A program made the translations under genes and the position numbers. 45,658 bases of DNA from Candidatus Peregrinibacteria bacterium (GTDB taxonomy: Bacteria > Patescibacteriota > Gracilibacteria > Peribacterales > Peribacteraceae): assembly GCA_016178535.1 (NCBI GenBank), contig JACOTD010000075.1, positions 1 through 45,658 on the forward strand, written 5' to 3'. The notes under the pieces are model-generated. The model searched no databases and was not told where the DNA came from. It saw only the letters and a program-made list of their open reading frames with translations. Below, piece by piece: positions 7,642 to 44,430 of the stretch. Within the stretch, counting starts at the first letter, position 1. Each line of letters begins with the position of its first letter.

Positions 7642-7677
7642 CTTGGTACTTGGCACTTCGCTATTCGCACTTGGCGC
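7642..7677. repeat. single-armed heptad tandem repeat (CTTGGTA CTTGGCA CTTCGCT ATTCGCA CTTGGCG)
   Basis: Five tandem 7-mers immediately after the regulator stop codon. No clear complementary arm nearby. Confidence 0.7.
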
Positions 7678-7720
7678 TTTCTCCACTCATAGGACAATTG
7701 GCAGAAGCACGGATTTTTGC

Positions 7721-11660: not shown

Positions 11661-13460
11661 TCAATCAATGGTAGGAAATGACAATTTCGCGCGAATCAAT
11701 TCGATCAATTCATCCACGAAGAACGGCCGCCCGTCGTACTTCAGAATCTTCTCATTGATCTCCAGGCCGCACTCCTGGCGAATGAGCACCCCCAGCTGCC
11801 CCTGGTAATTCTGCTCCACGAGGATGATCTTCTTCGCCTTCTTCGCGAGTGCTTGGAGGCGCTCCGTCTTCAAGGGCCACAGATACGTAAAATGCAAATA
11901 GCCGATTCTCTTCCCGCCGAACTTCTCATCTGCAAGTGCATCCAACACTGTGTCCTTCGAGCTCCCCCATCCAACAATGAGACAATCCAATAATGGAGAC
12001 TCATTCGTAATTCGTCCTTTTCCATTTTCAATTTTCCAGAGTTCCGGCTCCGGCAAAGCCTGCTTCAAACTCTCCAGCTTCCGCATCCTCTTCTCCATCT
12101 GTTCCTTCGCGTTCTTGGCCGTCTCATCCACGGTGCCATCTGCATTGTGTTCGTCTCCCTGCGCGCAGTACGTGGCGGCGTTGGACCCGGGAAGCCACCG
12201 CAGCGAGATGCCGTCTTTGACGTTGGGATCGTAGCGATCCGTTCCCTTGAGTTCCTTCAACGCTGCAGGATCGGTGACGAGTTTTCCTCGCTCGACCTTG
12301 ACCTTCGTCTGATCGAAGGGAGTCTGCGTGTAGAGCGCCTCCGCGACCTGCTTGTCCGTGAGGACGATGACGCTGATCTGGAACTCCTCGGCCAGGTTGA
12401 ATGCGACGGGCATCAGATCGAATGCATCCTGACTGTCGCTCACGGCGAGCACGCACCGCGCAAACTCCCCGTGCGCGGTGTGGATCGCCATCAGGAGATC
12501 GCCCTGCGCGGTCCACGTGGGGAGGCCGGTGGCCGGCCCCGGGCGCTGCGCAAGCACGAAGACCGTTGGGTTTTCGAGGATGCCGTTCAAGGAAAGCGTC
12601 TCGCTCATGAGGTCGAAGCCTCCACCCGAGGTCGCGGTGAGCGCGCGCGCGCCCATGAACATCGCTCCGGTGACGATCTGCGCCGCTGTGATCTCGTCCT
12701 CCGCCTGCTTGAGAACCATGCCCGTCTGGTTCTGCAGATCGGCAATGAAGGAGAGGAGCGGACTCGACGGCGTCATCGGATACCCGGCGTACAGACGAAC
12801 GCCAGCGTGCATGGCGCCGAGCCCCATCGCCTGGCTTCCGGTCACGAGCAGGTGATCCTTCCAGACGGGATCGGAGGATGGGAGTGTGACGGAGACACGA
12901 CCGGCCGCAGGATCCGTGTACGAGAATCCTTCCTCGATGCACTTCATGTTGAGCTCCAGGAGATTCTTCTTCTTGGCGAACCGTTCGCCGACGAGCGCTT
13001 TGAGCTCGTCTTTGTCCTGTCCGAGCGCGGCCCACAGGAACGCGGCCAGGAGGACGTTGCCGAGGATCGGTTTGGCTCCGAGTCTCTTGAGGATTTCCTC
13101 GAGCGGGATCGCGATGACGGTACTCTTCCGCGAGCGGAGGAGCTTCTGATCTTCCGGAGAGAATTTCCACTCGGGTGTGAGGTGGATGAGCACTCCGCTC
13201 TCCTTCACATCCGCGAGGTTATGCTCGAGGCCGTGGTGATTGAGCGCCATGACCGCGTTGACCTTCGTCTCCGCGCTGCGGACGCGATCGTTGCTGCAAT
13301 CGAGCTGGTAGGACGCATGGCCGCCCTTGATGAGGGAGGGATACTCGCGATAACCGAACACGCAGTACCCCGCGCGCTTGAGCCCCTTGGCCACGATCTC
13401 CCCGATCGAGTTGATGCCCTGGCCGGATGCGCCGACGATTTTGAGGGAGATGCGTGTCAT
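11661..13460 (-). CDS. korA: 2-oxoacid:ferredoxin/flavodoxin oxidoreductase, fused gamma-alpha subunit
   Basis: 599 aa. N-terminal gamma-like domain (GASGQGINSIG), then alpha-domain motifs GYPMTPSSPLL and ENPTVFVLAQRPGPATGLPT. Confidence 0.9.
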   Translation of the reverse strand: MTRISLKIVGASGQGINSIGEIVAKGLKRAGYCVFGYREYPSLIKGGHASYQLDCSNDRVRSAETKVNAVMALNHHGLEHNLADVKESGVLIHLTPEWKFSPEDQKLLRSRKSTVIAIPLEEILKRLGAKPILGNVLLAAFLWAALGQDKDELKALVGERFAKKKNLLELNMKCIEEGFSYTDPAAGRVSVTLPSSDPVWKDHLLVTGSQAMGLGAMHAGVRLYAGYPMTPSSPLLSFIADLQNQTGMVLKQAEDEITAAQIVTGAMFMGARALTATSGGGFDLMSETLSLNGILENPTVFVLAQRPGPATGLPTWTAQGDLLMAIHTAHGEFARCVLAVSDSQDAFDLMPVAFNLAEEFQISVIVLTDKQVAEALYTQTPFDQTKVKVERGKLVTDPAALKELKGTDRYDPNVKDGISLRWLPGSNAATYCAQGDEHNADGTVDETAKNAKEQMEKRMRKLESLKQALPEPELWKIENGKGRITNESPLLDCLIVGWGSSKDTVLDALADEKFGGKRIGYLHFTYLWPLKTERLQALAKKAKKIILVEQNYQGQLGVLIRQECGLEINEKILKYDGRPFFVDELIELIRAKLSFPTID

Positions 13461-13470
13461 GGGATGAAAG

Positions 13471-13536
13471 GCGAATGGCGAGTTGCGAGTTACGAATCAT
13501 TCGTCACTCGTAACTCGTAATTCGTAATTCGTAATT
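13471..13536. repeat. heptad-repeat hairpin (GCGAATG/CGAGTTA/CGAATC | ATTCGTC/ACTCGTA/ATTCGTA...)
   Basis: The left arm lies in the flavodoxin-korA spacer. The right arm encodes the last ~10 codons of flavodoxin. CGAGTTACGAA pairs with TTCGTCACTCG with one mismatch. Confidence 0.85.
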
Positions 13537-17055: not shown

Positions 17056-17129
17056 GAATTGCGAAGGGCGATTGGCGAGTTGCGAATGATGAGGCAAATT
17101 CGCAACTCGCAAGTTGCAACTCGCAATTC
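17056..17129. repeat. heptad-repeat hairpin (TTGCGAA type)
   Basis: GAATTGCGAAGGGCGATTGGCGAGTTGCGAAT - loop - AATTCGCAACTCGCAAGTTGCAACTCGCAATTC. Lies in a divergent spacer upstream of the GT2 gene. Confidence 0.85.
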
Positions 17130-17147
17130 TCCAGTATTCTACGATCC

Positions 17148-20760: not shown

Positions 20761-20904
20761 GGCGAGCAAGTATAGGAAGTTTCATGGCCAATGCAAAGCA
20801 AAATTTGCTCCAGAGGAAAGTGGATCAGTGGTTCAGTGTTCAGAGAAATGACCACTACCATGACTCTGAACCGCTGAACTCTGTACACTGTACTCTTGCT
20901 CGCC
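20761..20904 (-). promoter_or_regulatory. structured infC-rpmI spacer (outer 10-bp stem enclosing a heptad-repeat hairpin)
   Basis: GGCGAGCAAG (20761-20770) pairs with CTTGCTCGCC (20895-20904). The inner arms are 20826-20845 and 20864-20883 (TTCAGTG repeats). The outer stem ends 1 nt from the rpmI start codon. Confidence 0.55.
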
Positions 20905-23113: not shown

Positions 23114-23193
23114 GACGATTTACGAGTTACAGAATTACGAATTACGAATGAAAACCCGATACTCCAATCCCCATTCGTAATTCGTAAATCGTC
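23114..23193. repeat. heptad-repeat hairpin (TTACGAA type) with CCAATCCCCA in the loop
   Basis: GACGATTTACGAGTTACAGAATTACGAATTACGAATG - loop with CCAATCCCCA - ATTCGTAATTCGTAAATCGTC. Lies in a divergent spacer upstream of prfB. Confidence 0.85.
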
Positions 23194-23259
23194 ATTGCCC
23201 AAACATGCTTTTCTTCCACCAATCCTCTACACTCCAAGCATTCCATTTCCCCCTTTCCC

Positions 23260-24890: not shown

Positions 24891-25199
24891 TCAGAAGGAT
24901 CGAAGCAAGTGAAATTTCTTCATCTTGCGGTCTACTTCGCAAGCTTCGTAGACCCAAGATGCATGGACCAGAAGTGTCTTTTTGCAAAAGCATAGCCCGA
25001 TCCTGCTTTCAAATTCTTCTGCTCGTTGACGATCGTTCAATGGTACAACTACTTCGATTTGCCACGGTACCTGTGGTGCAGTTGTTTTCGTAAGGCCGCG
25101 ATGATGTTCATCCATGCGCGCACGGACATCTTTCGCAGTAAATCCTGCGTAGGTCATCACCGGATTCTTGATGCTTCTGAGGAGGTAGACGTGATACAT
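24891..25199 (-). CDS. GIY-YIG domain protein (UPF0213-like)
   Basis: MYHVYLLRS...YAGFT...RMDEHH...PW..VV...A...E pattern. The track ORF 24891-25340 is trimmed because its N-terminus is the tRNA. Confidence 0.7.
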   Translation of the reverse strand: MYHVYLLRSIKNPVMTYAGFTAKDVRARMDEHHRGLTKTTAPQVPWQIEVVVPLNDRQRAEEFESRIGLCFCKKTLLVHASWVYEACEVDRKMKKFHLLRSF

Positions 25200-25240
25200 G
25201 CTCCCACGGTAGCCAATTCTGCGTAGCTTGCGAAGCAGAA

Positions 25241-25331
25241 TGGCGGTGGGAGAGGGATTCGAACCCTCGAACCCCTTGTGGGGGTTACGCGATTTCGAGT
25301 CGCGCGCCTTCGACCGCTCGGCCATCCCACC
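25241..25331 (-). tRNA. tRNA-Ser (anticodon CGA), CCA encoded
   Basis: GGTGGGATGGCCGAGCGGTCGAAGGCGCGCGACTCGAAATCGCG-long variable arm-GGGTTCGAATCCCTCTCCCACCGCCA. Acceptor stem, CGCGA/TCGCG anticodon stem and T-arm all pair. Confidence 0.9.
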
Positions 25332-25422
25332 AAAAAGCATTCTACAGCATAACGTCCTCTTTGATGATGTTCGCCTGAGTCCTCGCGCGCGCGCCCCTGT
25401 ATTCCTGTCCCTTGTCTTCCCG

Positions 25423-26364
25423 TCACCCCCTCCGCATCTCCGGCTCCAGATACGGAACTCCCAGAGCCGCGTAGATGTCTTCTTCCTCTTTGCTCGCGAT
25501 CATCTTCTCTCCTTCGAAGAGACCGTACTCGCTCAGCTTCCACCCGCGGTCGATGGCGCGCTTGCGCAGCGTGATGTTGTGCTCTTTGTCGCCCGTGAAG
25601 TAGAGCAGCGCGCTCCCCCACTGCGCTTTCTTCACAAAACGAACATCGACTCTCAAACCAGATTGCAGATTGAACGAGAGCTTTCGCTCCCCGTGCGCCA
25701 CCACCTCGCGGACGATGGGAAGCGCGGCAATGGCATCGGAGATCTTCTTGGCATTCCTCGTGACAACGATGATGTCGAGGTCGCCGATCGTTTCTTTGTT
25801 GCGCCGGTACGATCCCGCGATCTCCGCGCGCTCCACGCCCTCGACGCCGCGAACCGTCTTCAACAGCATCTCGGCATCGGCTTCAATTTCTCCGCGAGGG
25901 AATCGCCTCGAGCGTTCCGCCACGTTCCTGGCATTCGCGAGGATCTTCTGCTCGATGACATCCGAGAAGCGGGGAAGCGCCCTGAGCTTCCCCTTCTGCG
26001 CCGCGGCAATGAGCTGAGGAACCGTCGTGATGCCGAGTGTTTGCAGTTGCCGCACGCGCTTGGGACCCAGATCCTCCACTTCCATGAGTTCCGCAGAAAG
26101 TCCACCCTGCGCGGCGAGCAGTTCATCCAGATGATGGATGCGTCCCGTCTGCACGAATTCGATGATCTTCCCCGCAATCGCCTCCCCGATCCCCGGCAAT
26201 TCCATCAATTTCTTCTTGTCCGCGATGAGCGAGACATCCCTCGGCACATCCTCCACCACCTGCGCGGCCCTGCGGTACGCCGCCGGCTTGAACGCCACTC
26301 CCTGCTCATCGAGCAGCGCAGCGATCTGGCGCAATTGCCCTGCGAGCTGATGATTGAGAGTCAT
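25423..26364 (-). CDS. family X DNA polymerase (Pol beta-like core, no PHP domain)
   Basis: HhH motifs (LPGIGEAIAGKI, GPKRVRQL) and the nucleotidyltransferase motif GSYRRNKETIGDLDIIVV. 313 aa. Confidence 0.85.
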   Translation of the reverse strand: MTLNHQLAGQLRQIAALLDEQGVAFKPAAYRRAAQVVEDVPRDVSLIADKKKLMELPGIGEAIAGKIIEFVQTGRIHHLDELLAAQGGLSAELMEVEDLGPKRVRQLQTLGITTVPQLIAAAQKGKLRALPRFSDVIEQKILANARNVAERSRRFPRGEIEADAEMLLKTVRGVEGVERAEIAGSYRRNKETIGDLDIIVVTRNAKKISDAIAALPIVREVVAHGERKLSFNLQSGLRVDVRFVKKAQWGSALLYFTGDKEHNITLRKRAIDRGWKLSEYGLFEGEKMIASKEEEDIYAALGVPYLEPEMRRG

Positions 26365-27171: not shown

Positions 27172-27180
27172 GAAGATTCT

Positions 27181-27217
27181 TCATTCGTAATTCGTAATTC
27201 GTCACTCGTAAATCGTC
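27181..27217. repeat. single-armed heptad repeat (ATTCGTA type)
   Basis: CATTCGTAATTCGTAATTCGTCACTCGTAAATCGTC. Its reverse complement is about 32/36 identical to the left arm at 23114-23150. Lies just 3' of ahcY. Confidence 0.85.
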
Positions 27218-27224
27218 ATTCCCG

Positions 27225-28480: not shown

Positions 28481-28573
28481 GAAATTGAAAATGGATACTT
28501 GAAAATTGAACATGAGGGAAGCTACTCTTGCAATACGCAGAATTGTCAATTATCAATTGTCCATTGTCAATTC
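28481..28573. repeat. imperfect repeat hairpin (TTGAAAA / TTGTCAA units)
   Basis: The left arm GAAATTGAAAATGGATACTTGAAAATTGAAC matches the reverse complement of the right arm GAATTGTCAATTATCAATTGTCCATTGTCAATTCC at about 24/30. The right arm overlaps the kinase stop. Confidence 0.7.
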
Positions 28574-29518
28574 CGGGAGTCTCTCCCCATACGTCTCCTC
28601 CGCTCTGCCGAAAATGTCATCGATGTCCACGTGATCGAGGAGCGTGCCTTCCCTCTCCACGACGAAGGAGGCGATGGAAGCGCCCAGCATCCCGCACTGC
28701 CGAAGGTCCCATCCTGAAGCGAGGCCTGCGAGAACTCCAGCGCGCAGTGCATCGCCCGCCCCCGTGGGGTTCACCAGAGCATCCGGCCTGCAGGCCGGGA
28801 GGATGATCGCCGGTTCCTTGCGGCGGTAGATCGTGAGGCCTTCTTCCCCGGCAGTGACGATGAGGAGAGGAGTGAGATCGAGGAGTTTGCTCGTGGAAAC
28901 TCCGACCTTCTCGGAGAGGAGGCTCCATTCGTAGGTGTTGGCAATCACTCCGGCGGCGCCCTCGATGGCACTGACGAGTTCATCGCGGCTGAGAGCGATC
29001 ACCTGCTGCCCCGGATCGAAGAGGTAGGGCACCTTCCACACGCGGCACCAGCGGACGGCCTGCATCATCGCGGTCGGATCGCGCGGGCTCACAATGGCAT
29101 GGACGAACTCTTCGCGCTGATCGGCGAGATCTGCCGGCCAGGAGGCATGGGCATCCGCGCCCGGGTGGAAGAAGGCGATCTGCCGCTCGCCGGTATCGGT
29201 CCCGATGATCGCCGTCGCCGTCACGCAGTCCGAGCGCACTTCAATGCGCGAGGTGTCGATGCCGCGCTCACGAAGCAGCGCGAGGTACGCCTCGCCATCG
29301 GCGCCGACGGAGGAGACGAGGAGAGGATTCTGGACGAGCAATTTCAAATTCCACGCGATGTTGGCGCCCGTGCCGCCGTGGTGTCGCGCGAAGTGCGGGC
29401 TGAAGAACGAGACGGAGAGATGCTCCAGATCCGAGGGATCGATGGCATCGCGGAATGACCCGTCGTAGCCGAGGAGGAGATCGTAGGCGATGGAACCGGT
29501 GACCAAAATATGCGTCAT
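28553..29518 (-). CDS. PfkB-family carbohydrate/nucleoside kinase (adenosine-kinase-like by context)
   Basis: Motifs HHGGTGANIAWN and C-terminal NPTGAGDALRAG. Start at MTHILVTGS (alternative ATG at 29527). Upstream of ahcY on the same strand. Confidence 0.8.
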   Translation of the reverse strand: MTHILVTGSIAYDLLLGYDGSFRDAIDPSDLEHLSVSFFSPHFARHHGGTGANIAWNLKLLVQNPLLVSSVGADGEAYLALLRERGIDTSRIEVRSDCVTATAIIGTDTGERQIAFFHPGADAHASWPADLADQREEFVHAIVSPRDPTAMMQAVRWCRVWKVPYLFDPGQQVIALSRDELVSAIEGAAGVIANTYEWSLLSEKVGVSTSKLLDLTPLLIVTAGEEGLTIYRRKEPAIILPACRPDALVNPTGAGDALRAGVLAGLASGWDLRQCGMLGASIASFVVEREGTLLDHVDIDDIFGRAEETYGERLPELTMDN

Positions 29519-29543: not shown

Positions 29544-30956
29544 ATGCGCATCGCCGTCATTGGCACCGGCTACGTCGGGCTCGTCTCCGCCGCCTGCTTC
29601 GCGGAACTGGGACACCACGTCACGGGCGCGGATATCGACGAGGCGAAGATCGCGATGCTGAAGGAAGGGAAGAGCCCCATCTACGAGCCGGGGCTTGAAG
29701 AATTGATCGCACGAGGACTCAAGAGCGGCCTCCTGCACTTCACGACCGACGTGAAGGAATGTCTCCCCGAGGTCCAGATCCTCTTCTCCGCCGTCGCAAC
29801 GCCGCCCAACGAAGATCGCAGCGCCGACCTGCAGGCGGTGTTCACCGTCGCGAGGACGGTCGCGGAACACGTCGATCACGATCTGGTCTTCGTGAACAAA
29901 TCGACCGTTCCCGTCGGCACCGGGAAGAAGTGCGAAGCGCTCATGGCCGAGATCCTCAAAAAGCGCGACCTGAACGTCTCAATCCCCGTCGTCAGCAATC
30001 CCGAATTCCTCCGCGAGGGAATGGCCGTGGGAGACACATTGATGCCGGATCGGATCGTGGTGGGAGTCAATGGAAACAATAGAGAAATTACGAATGACGA
30101 GTTGCGAGTTGCGAATGGAACTCGTAATTCGCAATTCGTAACTCGTAATTCATTCAATGCCTCAGCATTGATGGAAGAGCTCTACCGCCCCGTCACCCGC
30201 GTCGGCAAGCCCCTTCTCTTCATGAGTCGCGAGAGCGCGGAGATCGTGAAGTATGCGAGTAACGCGTTCCTGGCGACGAAAATCAGCTTCATCAACATGC
30301 TGACCGAATTCTGCGAGAAGACGGGGGCCAACATCCGCGATATCGCGCGCGGCATGGGCTTGGATGACCGCATCGGGCCGCGGTTCCTGCACGCCGGCAT
30401 CGGGTACGGCGGCAGCTGCTTCCCCAAAGATGTGAAGGCTCTCCTCGCGATGGCCAAGGAACACGGATTCGATTTCAGCATCGTCGAAGCGACCGACCGC
30501 ATCAACACGCGCCAGCGTCATCGCTTCTTCGAGAACATTCTGAAGACGCTCACGCCGAAGTCGACGGTCGCGATCTGGGGCCTTGCCTTCAAGCCCAAGA
30601 CCGACGACATGCGCGAGGCGCCGAGTTTGGATCTGCTTCGGAAGCTCGTTGATGAGGGGCACACCGTGAAGGCATACGATCCCGCCGCTGAGGAGAATGC
30701 GAGAAAACTGCTTCCAGAAATAAGCTCCTCACCAACAATGGAGTCAAACATCCTTTATCTCCATTCATCCATCGCAGCTGCAAGAGATGCGGATGCCATC
30801 GTACTTCTCACGGAGTGGGATGAATTTCGTGGCGTCGACCTCCATGAAGTTGCCAAGACTATGAAAGGGAAAGATCTCTTCGACGGCCGGAACGTCTACG
30901 AGCCGACCGAGGTGCGCGCGGCGGGGCTCGTCTACCATGGGATTGGGATCGTCTGA
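29544..30956 (+). CDS. ugd: UDP-glucose 6-dehydrogenase
   Basis: Motifs MRIAVIGTGYVGLV, NPEFLREG, GIGYGGSCFPKD. Contains a ~24-aa in-frame repeat insertion. Confidence 0.9.
   Translation: MRIAVIGTGYVGLVSAACFAELGHHVTGADIDEAKIAMLKEGKSPIYEPGLEELIARGLKSGLLHFTTDVKECLPEVQILFSAVATPPNEDRSADLQAVFTVARTVAEHVDHDLVFVNKSTVPVGTGKKCEALMAEILKKRDLNVSIPVVSNPEFLREGMAVGDTLMPDRIVVGVNGNNREITNDELRVANGTRNSQFVTRNSFNASALMEELYRPVTRVGKPLLFMSRESAEIVKYASNAFLATKISFINMLTEFCEKTGANIRDIARGMGLDDRIGPRFLHAGIGYGGSCFPKDVKALLAMAKEHGFDFSIVEATDRINTRQRHRFFENILKTLTPKSTVAIWGLAFKPKTDDMREAPSLDLLRKLVDEGHTVKAYDPAAEENARKLLPEISSSPTMESNILYLHSSIAAARDADAIVLLTEWDEFRGVDLHEVAKTMKGKDLFDGRNVYEPTEVRAAGLVYHGIGIV
30083..30154. repeat. heptad-repeat hairpin embedded in frame in ugd
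   Basis: GAAATTACGAATGACGAGTTGCGAGTTGCGAATGG AA CTCGTAATTCGCAATTCGTAACTCGTAATTCATTC, translated as EITNDELRVANGTRNSQFVTRNSF. Confidence 0.85.
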
Positions 30957-32331: not shown

Positions 32332-32392
32332 ACAAGGAGTACAAGGAGTACAAAGAATAGAGAACGTTGTATTCCTTGTCTTCCTTGTCTTC
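32332..32392. terminator. nonamer-repeat hairpin between convergent genes
   Basis: ACAAGGAGTACAAGGAGTACAAAG - loop - TTGTATTCCTTGTCTTCCTTGTCTTC. Same architecture as the heptad hairpins. No U-tract. Confidence 0.5.
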
Positions 32393-32835: not shown

Positions 32836-32954
32836 GGCAGAGGGGGGAACGATTCGTATGCTACCCCTGGATTCCAGACAGGCAAGAGTGCATCGGAGTG
32901 GTTTTTTCGTAGAAATTCATGGAGGAGACGACTGTGATCATTGCGTCAAGCGAG

Positions 32955-32960
32955 TATACT
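32955..32960 (+). promoter_or_regulatory. -10-like TATACT, 6 nt upstream of the HEPN ATG at 32967
   Basis: GAGTATACTGCAACCATG. Supports 32967 rather than 32919 as the start. Confidence 0.35.
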
Positions 32961-32966
32961 GCAACC

Positions 32967-33344
32967 ATGTCACGAGACGAGGTCATTGCTCACTGGCGAA
33001 AAGGTGCCCGGCAAGCACTGGAACTCGCCGGTGCCGCACATGAACGTTGCATCTATTCCCTCGCTCTCTTCCATTGCAATCTTGCGGTTGAAAAAGCTCT
33101 CAAGGCGGCATTCATCAAGGATAATGACCAAGAGCCCCCGTACACGCACAACCTCGTCGCCGTTGCGCAGAAATTGAAGCGCCCATGGACCAAGGCGCAG
33201 CTCAATGAACTGGCCGAGCTCTCGAAGTACGCCGTCGCCGCGCGCTACGACGATCCTCTGTGGATGGAGCAGGAGGCCACCGCAGCAAAGTCGCAGTTCT
33301 GGATGGAAAAGGCGCGAATCTATTTCTCCCTCTTGGATGTATGA
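32967..33344 (+). CDS. HEPN domain protein
   Basis: ALFHCNLAVEKALKAAFI...THNLVAVAQKL...AARYDD pattern. The stop overlaps the next ATG as ATGA. Confidence 0.8.
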   Translation: MSRDEVIAHWRKGARQALELAGAAHERCIYSLALFHCNLAVEKALKAAFIKDNDQEPPYTHNLVAVAQKLKRPWTKAQLNELAELSKYAVAARYDDPLWMEQEATAAKSQFWMEKARIYFSLLDV

Positions 33345-33652
33345 ACAATCGCAAAGGCCTTTCCACGGCTCTCCGATTCAAGAATGCTCTTCTTCAGCAA
33401 GGATATCCCGTGGAGCAGGTTCTTCTCTTTGGATCGCATGCAAAGGGAACGCAGCGTCAGAAGAGCGATATCGACGTCGCCGTTATCTGTAAACCATTCC
33501 TGCCGACGCGAATGGATGAAATGGGAAAATTCTGGATTGTCGCGAGCGACGTTGACCTGCGCATCGAGCCGATTTGCCTCCACCCCGAAGACTTCGATGA
33601 GAAGTATTCAACGATTATTCAGGAGGTGAAAAGGACGGGCATTGCTGTGTAA
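33341..33652 (+). CDS. minimal nucleotidyltransferase (MNT)
   Basis: LLFGSHAKGTQRQKSDIDVAV (the GS-x9-D-x-D motif). 103 aa. Confidence 0.8.
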   Translation: MNNRKGLSTALRFKNALLQQGYPVEQVLLFGSHAKGTQRQKSDIDVAVICKPFLPTRMDEMGKFWIVASDVDLRIEPICLHPEDFDEKYSTIIQEVKRTGIAV

Positions 33653-36390: not shown

Positions 36391-36495
36391 GAACGCGTTT
36401 CTGGTTTTTCGTTTTTCGTTTTCCTTGTCGATCGTGGAAAGAAACGAGAAACGCCTGCCCGTCGAAGTCGGAAAAACGAGCAACGAAAACGTTTC
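36391..36495. repeat. repeat hairpin (CGTTTTT / AAAAACG units) in a divergent spacer
   Basis: CGTTTCTGGTTTTTCGTTTTTCGTTTTCC ... GGAAAGAAACGAGAAACGC ... GGAAAAACGAGCAACGAAAACGTTTC. Confidence 0.8.
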
Positions 36496-38788: not shown

Positions 38789-40026
38789 CAGCGTGACGGG
38801 GAGAAGCGGACGAGGACGCCGCCGTGCGGGAAGGTCTGGAGAATCGTCCCGGGACGATGGAGACCGTCGCAGACGAACTCCCCGCGATAGAACTGCCACT
38901 CGTGCAGAGTCGCGATGGCGAATGCGGCGCGCCGCCATACCTGCTCGGAGGGAAACGCATCCGCGGGGAAGAGAAGGTAACGGAGGATCTTCGCCTCGAC
39001 GCCGTGATTGCGTCCGCACACCGCGGCCACCGTGCCGGGAGTGAGAGTCGCCTGTGAACGGAGCGCATCCGCGGCGAGATAGACATCTCCCGTTCCTCCG
39101 TAGACGTGTTCCGTTTCCCATCGCTGCACCTGGACAAGTGACGATGCAAAAGCATCCGGCAGAAAACGCAGTTGGTAGAGCCCGAGGAAGATGATCGTAA
39201 CCAACAGGAAATGTCTGAGCGCGCCCGCTTGTGGTGAGCCTGGCCGAACCATCCACGGGTGCGCCTTGAACGGGTGCGGCCATTGTTGCAATGATGATCG
39301 CGACCCCTGCCCAGAGGAATTTCCCGAATGATGTTCCCGAATGGATTTCCACAGCATCAAAAGATCAACCACCGCCACAAGAACCGCCATCGCGACGAAT
39401 CCCACCCCCAGAATGAACGCCAAGGACATCCCGCCGACGACATACCCCCGCAGCACGCTCTGGGACGACACCTGCCACGGCTCGCTTCTGCGAAGTTGGA
39501 CAAGCATCGACCATGCGCGATCGGCGAGATTCCCCCGGTCCTCCACCGCAATCGTCCGGAGGTTCACCGGCTGATCTCCGCGCTGGAACAGATACAGAAC
39601 GGCCCCCGCGCCGCGCGGTTTCCATCCGGGAAGGGCGCGCAACGAGAGCACGGCTTCTTGGTTTGTCCCGGGGGGGAGGACGCTCACGAGGAGATTCGCA
39701 TCGTTGTAGCCTTGCGCAAGGGCGGCATCCGCGACGGCGTAGAGGACGGGAACGGGGAGGGCGGCGGAGTAGCGGATGCGCAGCTGCGTTCCGGGGAGGG
39801 GCAGAACCTCATGACGTGACTGAGTGTCTTGATGCGCAGAGGGATGCAGGACGCGCTCGACAAGAGTCGTGACCTGTTCGCCGCTCGTGACGATCGTCGA
39901 TGGAACCTCCCGCGGATCGGGCGGCGTGCGCAGCAAGAACATCACGAGCGTTGCCGCCCCCAGGCACAGAACCAAGACCGAGAACACGAGGATGGACCGC
40001 CGAGCGCGTGAAGAGGATGTCATCAT
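38788..40026 (-). CDS. hypothetical membrane protein
   Basis: 412 aa. N-terminal TM helix ([21 protein letters not shown]), a central TM helix ([21 protein letters not shown]) and one more. ATGA overlap with the upstream gene. Confidence 0.6.
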
Positions 40027-41732
40027 GCGGACTTTCCCTCATGGTAATCCATCTCGAGGTTGACCTCCCACAGATTGGACTTGTCGCTGCGACCGGCAAT
40101 GATATTGTCCACCGCCGTCATCGCCGTGAGCATGCTGTGATCCTGATTGTTGTACCGGTGCATGCCGTTTCTGCCGATGAGGAAGAGATTGGGAACGGTC
40201 TCGACGAAATCCCGCACCACGCCGATCTGCTCGTAGCTGCCGATGTAGGCGGGGTAGGCCTTGGGCATGCGCAGCACACAGGCATCGAGGACGTCTGAGC
40301 GGCGCAGGAATCCGATCGTCTCCATCTCACGAATCCCGAGCTGAATGATCTCCCGATCGGGCTGCACCCACAGATCGCCGCCCTCGTTGACGAAGTACTC
40401 GAGCCCGATCCACACGGTGTTCCTGCGATCGGCGACCATGTACGGGCTCCAGTTGTTGAAAATCTGCACTCTCCCCACGCGCACCCCTCCGTCCTGGATG
40501 TAGATCCAATTATCCGGCACGCGCGCGGCAGGATTCTTCCCCTTCTCCCGCACGTGGAGGCTCTTCACGAGCAAACCGACGGTGAGGAAATCGCGGTAGT
40601 GGAGACCCTCGGCCACCTCCACGACGCGCGAGGGCGGATGCGGGCGCATCATCCCGATCAGGTGCTTGATCGGCATCGTGGAGAAGAAGAAGTCACAGGG
40701 AACCCGTTCGATCTCGCCCGTGTCGGCATTCTCGATCTCGACGCTCGTCACGCGACCGGCTGTCAGGTGCACGCCGCTGACCCTCCGCCGCATCCGGACT
40801 TCTCCGCCGCATTTCCGGATGTGGTCGGTCACCGTCTCCCACATCTGTCCCGGCCCGAACTTGGGATAGTGGAACCGCGTGATGAGGCTCGTCTCGCGCT
40901 CCTGCTGCGCCTTCTGAAAATCGCTGCTGAGGAGATCTTTGACCGCATGGACGATAGCCCGCTTGAGCGAGAGGCCTTTGATCCGCTGCGCGCCCCAGTC
41001 CGCGCGGATCTGATCGCACGGCACGCCCCACACCTTCTCCGTGTAGTCCTTGAAGAACGTCTCGTAGAGGCGCACGCCGAAGCGGTTGGTGAAGAAGGCA
41101 TCGAGGTACGTTTCGTCGCGGATGGGAAACATCTGCGCCTTCACGTAACTCAGACCGATGAGGAAGGTGTTGAGGAGTCCGAGCCTGCGCGCGACCGTCA
41201 GCGTGATGCCGATGGGGTACGGGAAGAAGTGCCGACGGTAGAAGATGCGCGAAAGACGGGGACGTTGGAGCATGACGGCATCCTCTTTTCCGGGATCGGG
41301 GGCATTTCTCTTGATTGCAGGTGACAATGAATGAGTTACGAATTCCGATTTACGAGTTACGAATTGGTCCGGCTTTCGTAATTCGTAACTCGTAACTCGT
41401 AATTCCTCAGGGATGCATTCTTTACACAAATACTCCACAGTCACCTCCGCCACATACTCAATCTCATGTCCTTTCTCCGCCGTATCCGCCGAAGGTGAAC
41501 CTTGCGGAGGGAGGATGTTGAACCACCACTGCATCACGCGTTCGCTCTTGCTGAAGAACCGATGCCCCCCGATGTCGATGCGGTTGCCCTTGTAGTTGAA
41601 GGTCTGCGCGATCCCGCCGATCGCGGCTGTCTCCTCCAGCACGATCGGATGGATGTCCGTACGCTTGAGGAGTTCGTAGGCGGCGGTGAGGCCGGCGGGG
41701 CCGGCCCCTGCGATGATGGCAATTTTTTTCAT
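40023..41732 (-). CDS. FAD/NAD(P)-binding oxidoreductase (amine-oxidase / UDP-galactopyranose-mutase-like fold)
   Basis: N-terminal [20 protein letters not shown]...LEETAAIGG dinucleotide fold. C-terminal [14 protein letters not shown]. Contains an in-frame hairpin insertion. Confidence 0.8.
41329..41406. repeat. heptad-repeat hairpin embedded in frame in the FAD oxidoreductase gene
   Basis: GAATGAGTTACGAATTCCGATTTACGAGTTACGAATTGG - TCCGGCT - TTCGTAATTCGTAACTCGTAACTCGTAATTCC. The sense strand encodes [27 protein letters not shown]. Confidence 0.85.
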
Positions 41733-41822
41733 GGAAAATCGGAAGCAATGGTACAGGGAAATGTCCAAACAGTCGCAACGGGAAGCTCCCTTCAATCGTC
41801 AGAAAAATTGTGGAATCGTGGA

Positions 41823-42923: not shown

Positions 42924-43111
42924 TGGTGGAGCGTGGGGGAATCGAACCCCGCTCCGCGGTTCTCAAGACGCGGAGGCCAACCTGGCCACGCCCCATAACT
43001 CGGCTGTACGATCGTACACCATTCTTCTTGACGCTCGCAAGGCTAAGAGGGTATGCTGACAATGGTTCTCAAGACGCGGATGGCCTTCCGGGCCAATCGA
43101 ATTCCCGCCCC
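42924..43111 (-). ncRNA. ssrA: tmRNA-like gene (ssrA), unusually short (~188 nt)
   Basis: 5' GGGGCGGGAAUUCGAU..., 3' ...GGAGCGGGGUUCGAUUCCCCCACGCUCCACCA. The acceptor stem has a G3:U70 pair. UCCGCG/CGCGGA forms a P2-like helix. One frame is open to a UGA at 42963-42965. Confidence 0.6.
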
Positions 43112-43164: not shown

Positions 43165-44430
43165 ATGAAAGAGACTATTTGCATCGTCGGGCTGGGTTAC
43201 GTCGGTCTTCCCCTCGCCCATGCGTTCGCCAAGGCGGGATACGAAACACTCGGGTACGACATTGCGGAGAAGCGAATCGGGGAACTGCGCCGGGGACATG
43301 ACCGCACGCGTGAACTCAACGAAAAACAATTGAAGGAAGTGACGATGACCTTCAGTGCCGATTCGGAGATCCTCGAGAGAGCAGACATCATCATCATGGC
43401 TCTCCCCACTCCCGTGGACGCAGAGAACAAGCCGGATCTCTCTCCCGTGGAGAGTGCATCGAAGACGGTGGGGAAACATCTGAAGAAGGGCGCCATCGTC
43501 GTCTACGAATCGACGGTGTATCCGGGCACGACCGAGGAGATCTGCGGACCGATCCTCGAGAAAGAATCCGGGCTTGTCTGCGGCAAGGATTTTTTCCTCG
43601 GCTACTCCCCCGAGCGCATCAACCCCGGGGACAAGGAGCACACGGTGACGAAGATCGTGAAGGTGGTGGCGGGGCAGGACGAGAAAACGACGGACGTCCT
43701 CTGCGAGCTCTATAGCTCCGTGATCACGGCCGGCGTTCACCGCGCCCCGAGCGTCAAAGTGGCCGAGATGGCCAAGGCGATCGAGAACGCCCAGCGCGAC
43801 TTGAACATTGCCTTCATGAACGAAATCGCGCTCCTGAGCAACAAGATCGGCATCAAGACCAAGGACGTGCTCGCGGCGGCGGCGACCAAGTGGAACTTCC
43901 TTCCGTTCAAGCCGGGGCTCGTCGGCGGTCACTGCATCGGCGTTGATCCGTACTATCTGGTGGAGAAGGCCCGGCAACTCGGAATGGAGACGCACGTGAT
44001 CGATGCGGGGCGGCAGATCAACGATCGCATGAGCAAGGAAGTGGCGATGCAGGTGCTCAATGCACTGGATGTGTCTCCGGCTAAAGCCCGGATCCTCGTC
44101 CTGGGGCTCACCTTCAAAGAAAACATTCCCGATACGAGGAACAGCAAATCCATGGACGTGGTTCATCATCTGCAAAGCGCCGGCTGCGCGGTCGAGGTCA
44201 ACGATCCGTACGTGAGCGACGAAGAGCTCAAACGCATGGAGATGACGACGGGAGCATGCGAAGAGAATCGCTACGATGCCGTCGTCTTCCTTGCGCCGCA
44301 CCGGGAATACCTCGCAGATGTTCAGGGGATGATCAACGCCGTGAAGAAGGGTGGAGTCTTCTACGATCTTAAATCGCTCGTCGATAGGGACACAATCGAG
44401 AGGGCGGGGAGAAGGTACGTGGCGCTATGA
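43165..44430 (+). CDS. nucleotide-sugar dehydrogenase (UDP-N-acetyl-hexosamine dehydrogenase, TviB/WecC/Cap5O-like)
   Basis: Motifs ICIVGLGYVGLPLAHAFA, ESTVYPGTTEE, GGHCIGVDPYY. 421 aa. Confidence 0.9.
   Translation: MKETICIVGLGYVGLPLAHAFAKAGYETLGYDIAEKRIGELRRGHDRTRELNEKQLKEVTMTFSADSEILERADIIIMALPTPVDAENKPDLSPVESASKTVGKHLKKGAIVVYESTVYPGTTEEICGPILEKESGLVCGKDFFLGYSPERINPGDKEHTVTKIVKVVAGQDEKTTDVLCELYSSVITAGVHRAPSVKVAEMAKAIENAQRDLNIAFMNEIALLSNKIGIKTKDVLAAAATKWNFLPFKPGLVGGHCIGVDPYYLVEKARQLGMETHVIDAGRQINDRMSKEVAMQVLNALDVSPAKARILVLGLTFKENIPDTRNSKSMDVVHHLQSAGCAVEVNDPYVSDEELKRMEMTTGACEENRYDAVVFLAPHREYLADVQGMINAVKKGGVFYDLKSLVDRDTIERAGRRYVAL

Follow-up and report, generated by a model that had tools for sequence, protein, structure and literature searches.

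Here we report that ugd, the UDP-glucose 6-dehydrogenase gene of a Peribacteria/Peregrinibacteria bacterium of the Candidate Phyla Radiation (CPR), carries within its reading frame a palindrome built of tandem seven-nucleotide repeats, at a position that other members of the lineage fill with differing repeats or leave empty. The gene occupies 29544..30956 (+) of a contig of 45,658 nt (45.7 kb), the whole of which was analysed and is called the window below; the GC content of the genome is 59%. We think it probable that this palindrome and its counterparts are replaceable, translated cassettes at fixed permissive loops, behaving like the Rickettsia palindromic elements (RPEs) and yet built differently. 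In-frame palindromes themselves are known from Rickettsia; what was not expected is a hot spot at which cassettes seem to be replaced.

The inserted segment, at 30081..30155 (+), amounts to about 22-25 codons (REITNDELRVANGTRNSQFVTRNS with or without flanking residues), its boundaries being uncertain by a few codons. It contains an inverted repeat, 30086-30114 against 30122-30150, whose 29-nt arms are 83% complementary and separated by a 7-nt spacer. Both arms have a period of 7, the left (30086..30114, +) reading as the heptads TTACGAA TGACGAG TTGCGAG TTGCGA and the right (30122..30150, +) as TCGTAAT TCGCAAT TCGTAAC TCGTAAT; the loop between them (30115..30121, +) is ATGGAAC, in a context, GCGAATGGAA, that is common to the inserts of loci L166 and L082. 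The RNA of the + strand has a minimum free energy of -37.2 kcal/mol (z = -8.1), none of 200 shuffled sequences being equally stable, and the GC content is 0.40-0.45 at the hairpin as against ~0.6 across the remaining gene. The arms, the period and the folding score thus bear out the two-armed heptad hairpin described in the initial annotation of this DNA. The hairpin lacks a T-tract and was not flagged in a terminator scan, so it does not qualify as an intrinsic terminator with GC-rich stem and T-run; nor did a known RNA family account for it, no covariance model in Rfam 15 giving a match.

The hairpin was said in that annotation to fall where homologues have only a short linker, and both solved structures and orthologues agree. 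Opposite query residues 177-205, PDB 2y0e (Burkholderia BceC, E = 2e-120) has chain residues 185-191 only, leaving ~22 extra residues; compared with Ugd orthologues of 435/436 aa the excess is ~25. The empty site is itself found in related genomes, as about half of 120 close homologues have 435-436 aa and read uninterrupted through VGxNGDD-WAKELMEELY. The segment is not shared with unrelated lineages: distant Ugd relatives (Bacteroidota, archaea and others, 43-51% identity) are without it, judging by match lengths of ~1290-1317 nt. A metagenome scan from alignment A1 used patterns that were too generic and mostly returned outgroups of 43-47% identity, which serve as insert-free controls only. 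In the AlphaFold2 model (mean predicted local distance difference test score, pLDDT, 84.7; TM 0.86 to BceC) the insert stands between strand 171-174 and helix 206-218, with pLDDT <50 for residues 180-202, and on these values it is predicted to be a disordered surface loop where the NAD-binding domain ends, after its last beta-strand.

The insert in ugd is not unique to the window. When 120 Ugd sequences are aligned, 56 of them (~47%) have 5-42 extra residues at core position 179, and every other indel site is hit only once or twice. Where the DNA was read, the large inserts proved to be mostly tandem-repeat arrays, in most cases palindromic, of other units: GTGGACA/TGTCCAC in L001, GCGACGA/CGTCGCC in L003, GATGGCA/CTGCCAT in L007, AGCCACT/GCCAGAG in L021, GCTATGA/CTCACAG in L163, AGCGGTC/GCTGACA in L164 and a one-armed CAAAGCT array in L012. 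L165 has a palindrome with another unit at this site, and further types were also seen. The encoded peptides are not conserved between Ugd orthologues, and heptad arrays of differing units also lie just upstream of ugd in seven species. An amine-oxidase-like protein, encoded in the window at 40023..41795 (-), is filled at one site, after YLCPEC, in 52 of 120 orthologues; the window's gene has there a second in-frame copy of the ugd palindrome's family at 41333..41405 (-). Comparison of these sequences indicates that the ugd site is a hot spot across the Peribacteria/Peregrinibacteria lineage.

Such recurrence might be expected of an mRNA or DNA hairpin selected for a function of its own, for instance to make ribosomes pause where two domains meet, to offer an RNase site or to serve as an attenuator within the gene: one site is occupied in each of two polysaccharide-cluster genes in many lineages, the hairpin is kept while the peptide is not, and in ugd the sense strand folds better than the - strand (-37.2 vs -29.5 kcal/mol). 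We nevertheless consider this unlikely, as the site is empty in about half of the orthologues, close ones included, and no T-tract, terminator flag or Rfam match was found at the ugd hairpin. Selection at the RNA level, judged from the asymmetry of G:U pairing between strands, was rejected when 12 filled sites were compared, since about 4 fold better in the sense and 7 in the antisense direction; with no consistent link between folding asymmetry and coding strand, a function in the mRNA is not supported.

The similarity of the inserts is uncoupled from the similarity of the genes that hold them. In the closest genome (GCA_016201685.1; loci L001 and L167) the ugd flanks are 87-93% identical to those of the window, with third codon positions at 0.71-0.83, and the insert is an unrelated palindrome. 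Measured in windows of 45 nt, identity between L001 and our sequence is 0.8-0.98 across the upstream and central gene, 0.47-0.53 at 30084-30173, and back to 0.93 at 30174. With so little divergence, neither point mutation nor slippage could have changed ACGAGTT to GTGGACA. L166 presents the reverse case: its ugd flanks are 72% identical with third positions saturated (0.40-0.44), and its insert matches the window's in a 4+4 arrangement of heptads and in the loop context GCGAATGRAA. The core of that insert, loop included, is ~80% identical by alignment columns counted by eye, and a global alignment of all 93 nt of the insert region gives a computed identity of 0.67; the left arm in L082, also counted by eye, matches ours at 27 of 33 positions. 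The window and L167 likewise carry different units between the epimerase and GT2-GtrA genes, at an intergenic site that is orthologous in the two.

These comparisons bear on whether the repeats could have formed where they now stand, by replication slippage of a 7-mer and template-switch inverted duplication seeded by host sequence, with no mobile element involved. Several observations are in keeping with such an origin. The GAGCTC...GAGCTC just downstream of the ugd insert could mark a fragile or palindromic spot, one-armed arrays exist, and host motifs resembling AATGG/GGAAA are present in the loops of the window, L001 and L007. The units of L003 and L012 resemble flanking host codons: in L003 GGCGACGAG runs on into the GCGACGA heptads, and the CAAAGCT of L012 resembles AAAGAGCTC. 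Neither target-site duplications nor a transposase were found in the window. On the other side, the same heptad family stands at six or more unlinked loci of the window, in other Peribacteria and in 100 IMG/VR contigs of 29-70% GC, and in a relative whose flanks match at ~90% the unit is entirely different and its boundaries are sharp, a turnover too fast for slippage plus point mutation. We regard formation in situ as rather improbable.

Purifying selection holds the frame of the inserts open. The ugd reading frame continues through the insert and translates as ...VGVNGNNREITNDELRVANGTRNSQFVTRNSFNASALMEELYRP..., in agreement with the peptide given in the initial annotation. Its account of the frame is also confirmed codon by codon: the right-arm TAA triplets at 30125, 30139 and 30146 are all out of frame, and the sole heptad in which a TAA would terminate translation has an in-frame CAA (Gln; 30132..30134, +), paired with TTG at 30102-30104. 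The pattern extends well beyond this copy. All 26 filled sites read in ugd and the amine-oxidase-like gene have lengths that are multiples of three and are open in the host frame alone, with stops in the three frames numbering 0/27/37. In L164 the heptad that would yield an in-frame TGA reads TCA. On the sense strand of the copy at 41333-41405, three TAA triplets are all out of frame, and the in-frame position has GAA, within a TCGGAA that occurs only once among the 44 family heptads listed; this unique and uncompensated change fits the removal of a stop. The stop counts and the TCGGAA heptad are what the selection for an open host frame proposed in the initial annotation would lead one to expect.

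The direction of change proposed there, from TAA to CAA, is probably wrong. All right-arm heptads of the homologous inserts of L166 and L082 contain CGCAA, TCGCAA is a common variant of the family, and the inner left-arm heptads of the ugd copy both read TTGCGA, the exact complement of CGCAA; for these reasons the CAA was probably retained rather than edited. It is likelier that CAA was ancestral at all positions, that the three out-of-frame heptads changed to CGTAA, the dominant form in this genome, with the in-frame one kept, and that these changes created the G:T mismatches of the ugd hairpin. The TTG does pair with the CAA, as the initial annotation had it, but the match in the facing arm does not testify to compensation, since that arm contains TTGCGA two times and G-rich left arms also occur in other copies of the family; a compensatory change was accordingly rejected.

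The insert is almost certainly translated, as a loop of ~22-25 residues, judging from its being open only in the host frame. Ribosome-skipped hairpins are known from yeast mitochondria ("byps") and T4 gene 60 as short inserts in coding sequences that need not be in frame or stop-free, and bypassing typically involves a stable hairpin within coding sequence. No direct evidence of skipping was found in the Peribacteria inserts, which, in contrast, are always in frame and stop-free, and in three of them the in-frame stop positions have been specifically altered. That these inserts are bypassed by the ribosome or removed from the RNA is very improbable, because segments that are skipped or excised would escape such a constraint on frame; the stop counts and the TCA of L164 argue strongly for translation and against both.

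The host gene is intact and no pseudogene: all three Pfam UDPG_MGDP_dh domains are found, every invariant column of 81 Ugd orthologues is retained, including the GGSCFPKD catalytic cysteine motif, and the GC content at third codon positions (GC3) is of the coding type at 0.74. Translation could also start at an upstream ATG, at 29490. A pseudogene or an assembly artefact is hardly credible, even in a metagenome-assembled contig whose second hairpin gene was miscalled as 416 aa, given the intact reading frame, invariant residues, coding-type GC3 and confident fold, a 6,071-nt stretch spanning ugd that a separate Logan assembly record reproduces with 100% identity, and the same phenomenon in dozens of independent metagenome-assembled genomes. 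Two further observations concern this enzyme. The block of the C-terminal domain at 30624-30900 is low in GC and has diverged strongly from the L001 gene, which is otherwise 84-96% identical, with an identity of only 0.24 at 30714-30758; another segment may have been replaced here. A second UDPG/GDP-mannose dehydrogenase paralogue lies at 43165-44430 (421 aa) with three colinear Pfam domains.

Taken as replaceable cassettes, the palindromes would be drawn from conserved repeat families, being either selfish or structurally selected DNA, and would be repeatedly inserted, excised or swapped at the few sites that the protein tolerates. In coding regions only insertions into permissive loops would survive, and the encoded peptide would be a passenger. 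Hairpin- or single-stranded-DNA-directed transposition or recombination is a possible enzymology, as it would fit the lack of target-site duplications.

Several points weigh against this interpretation. Among the genes of the 45.7-kb window there is no transposase, RAYT or reverse transcriptase, and the flanks of the six family copies inspected contain no convincing target-site duplication or defined ends, so that we infer mobility only from distribution. A common flanking motif was also rejected, CAAT being present at the ugd copy only and the other flanks merely extending the palindrome. The window and L164 each have one family in both in-frame inserts, but the two in-frame sites of the L001/L167 genome carry different families, and concordance within genomes therefore fails as a rule. 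The host-like units of L003 and L012 count on this side too; the resemblance is suggestive in these two only, and local seeding or microhomology-guided integration remains a minority view. Finally, the neighbour-joining tree on which filled and empty alleles were seen to scatter is crude. We raise tentatively the possibility that an undescribed system, directed by hairpins or single-stranded DNA and leaving no target-site duplications, might write or swap tandem-heptad palindromes at fixed addresses, including the loops of essential enzymes, in Peribacteria and perhaps in cyanobacteria and others.

The family of the ugd palindrome, with tandem-heptad arms of TTACGAR / YTCGTAA, has at least six copies in the window, and the pattern TCGYAAYTCGYAAY gives 24 matches with up to one mismatch where 0.22 would be expected. 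Outside ugd and the amine-oxidase-like gene, copies lie at 13462..13536, between the POR and flavodoxin genes, where the repeat encodes the flavodoxin C-terminus and stop (NYELRITSYE*); at 17058..17130, upstream of a GT2 gene, in a GCGAGTT/TCGCAA subtype; and at 23115..23196, intergenic and with a long loop. A one-armed copy, an ATTCGTA array, follows just 3' of the ahcY stop codon, at 27176..27221. Most palindromes of the window are located at gene ends, and a repeat array at 28541-28572 likewise supplies the last codons and stop of the PfkB gene (ELTMDN*). The source gene caller miscalled the amine-oxidase-like gene, whose 416-aa product (P0234) was made to start after the hairpin.

Repeats of other units share the window with this family. 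The POR alpha gene (11661..13460, -) contains a one-armed in-frame heptad tract at 11990-12040, three TGGAAAA and two ACGAATT, whose translation, ELWKIENGKGRITNE, separates the POR_N domain from PFOR_II. Palindromes or arrays of other 7-, 8- and 9-nt units stand at 20811-20900, 32332-32392, 36396-36460 and 7642-7679 and are made of the octamer GTTCAGNG, the nonamer ACAAGGAGT, CGTTTTT and CTTGGCA; the GTTCAGNG family also lies in frame within the amine-oxidase gene of L167, a related genome. In 28 Peribacteria loci totalling 483 kb we counted 128 arrays of period 7-9, of which 28 are inside coding-like open reading frames that extend for at least 60 codons to either side and belong to five or more different genes. 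In-frame heptad palindromes were also noted in other Peribacteria at L002 15152-15221, in an open reading frame of ~700 aa, and at L163 2001-2029, in an ADP-forming acetyl-CoA synthetase gene. TCGTAAY/TTACGAR heptad arrays occur in 100 IMG/VR contigs (L168-L267, for example L174, L213, L219 and L202; GC 29-70%), ~10% of them HIP1-rich and cyanobacteria-like, so that the Peribacteria lineage is not alone in having these unit families. Some of the arrays are hairpins just upstream of ribosome-binding sites.

Other features of the window stand apart from the tandem repeats. Two very stable intergenic palindromes without tandem structure, at 1241-1330 and 2141-2230 (-65 and -58 kcal/mol over 110 nt), include a perfect GGTTAGCCGCCGGTTTAAACCGGCGGCTAACC. 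A tRNA-like element at 42924-42995 (-), just downstream of the GDP-mannose dehydratase gene, is given a 4-nt anticodon by ARAGORN and scores 27 bits against the Rfam tRNA-Sec model, below the gathering threshold. A HEPN/nucleotidyltransferase pair occupies 32919-33652, and at 24891-26364 a GIY-YIG open reading frame adjoins tRNA-Ser and a PolX-family polymerase.

The initial annotation compared the ugd insert with the RPEs, palindromic repeats standing in frame in housekeeping genes of Rickettsia (Ogata et al. 2000, as summarised in PMC10969869). The analogy stands for behaviour: in both cases a dispersed palindromic family is found in frame in unrelated genes, the reading frame stays open, the insert appears compatible with the fold, and intergenic copies exist as well. 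It does not extend to membership of the RPE families. RPEs measure ~100-150 bp, have a conserved peptide per family and are specific to Rickettsia, whereas the present elements measure 65-75 bp, have tandem-heptad arms and encode an unconserved peptide; length, architecture, the Peribacteria host and the peptide all set them apart from RPE-1 to RPE-10 on comparison with the descriptions of these families. The presence of different families at the same site in different species is a feature of the Peribacteria inserts. To our knowledge, the swapping of RPE insertions for other families at one site has not been reported.

A second likeness is to cyanobacterial repeats. Tandem heptanucleotide repeats (STRR) were reportedly described in cyanobacteria by Mazel et al. 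in 1990, and Elhai et al. are said to have treated small dispersed repeats of cyanobacteria in 2008. STRRs consist of tandem 7-nt units, with several families per genome that are mostly intergenic and sometimes form hairpins, in heterocystous cyanobacteria; published units are CCCCAGT, TTGGTCA and CAACAGT. The Peribacteria repeats share the tandem heptanucleotides, the several families and the dispersal over the genome, and differ in their CPR host and in their units, although the TCGTAAY/TTACGAR heptad hairpin is itself present in the HIP1-rich, cyanobacteria-like IMG/VR contigs. We know of no account in which STRRs form palindromes that are translated in frame within conserved protein loops and are replaced from one species to the next.

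In enterobacteria, too, a given intergenic position is known to carry sequences specific to each species. REP, BIME and REPIN sequences with RAYT transposases are short palindromes in many copies and several families, found at gene ends and without target-site duplications (PMC3116915, PMC3733652). REPs are imperfect palindromes of 20-40 nt, extragenic, with a GTAG or CGTC head and no internal tandem periodicity; the Peribacteria elements have ends without such a head, and two of the copies are intragenic. A cognate RAYT (Y1 transposase) was not found in the 45.7-kb window, which is part of a genome that probably measures ~1.2 Mb, like that of Ca. Peribacter riflensis (PMC4736985). Intragenic miniature inverted-repeat transposable elements such as ERIC, BOX and QMITE1 are small non-autonomous repeats that can be read through host reading frames (PMC10969869). 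Their terminal inverted repeats, target-site duplications and origin from insertion sequences were not seen in the Peribacteria element, the whole of which is one palindrome; the window contains no insertion sequence, and no consistent flanking direct repeat accompanies the six copies. Our literature search yielded no report of repeats like these from Peribacteria or the CPR, and the Peribacteria genome paper mentions strain indels of tens of bp in twelve proteins and nothing further of this kind (PMC4736985).

These findings extend selfish DNA within protein-coding genes from Rickettsia to the CPR, with a different element architecture. Specific protein loops can remain landing pads over long periods, with a turnover of their DNA much more rapid than that of the surrounding gene. 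The hairpins mislead gene callers, one gene here having been truncated to 416 aa, and such inserts inflate the apparent diversity of proteins in CPR metagenomes. Heptad families common to several phyla point to a repeat-generating or repeat-mobilising mechanism that is possibly widespread, and if a system that writes or swaps such palindromes does exist, these "nano-cassettes" would represent a new class of mobile or templated element, beyond the RPE-like case.

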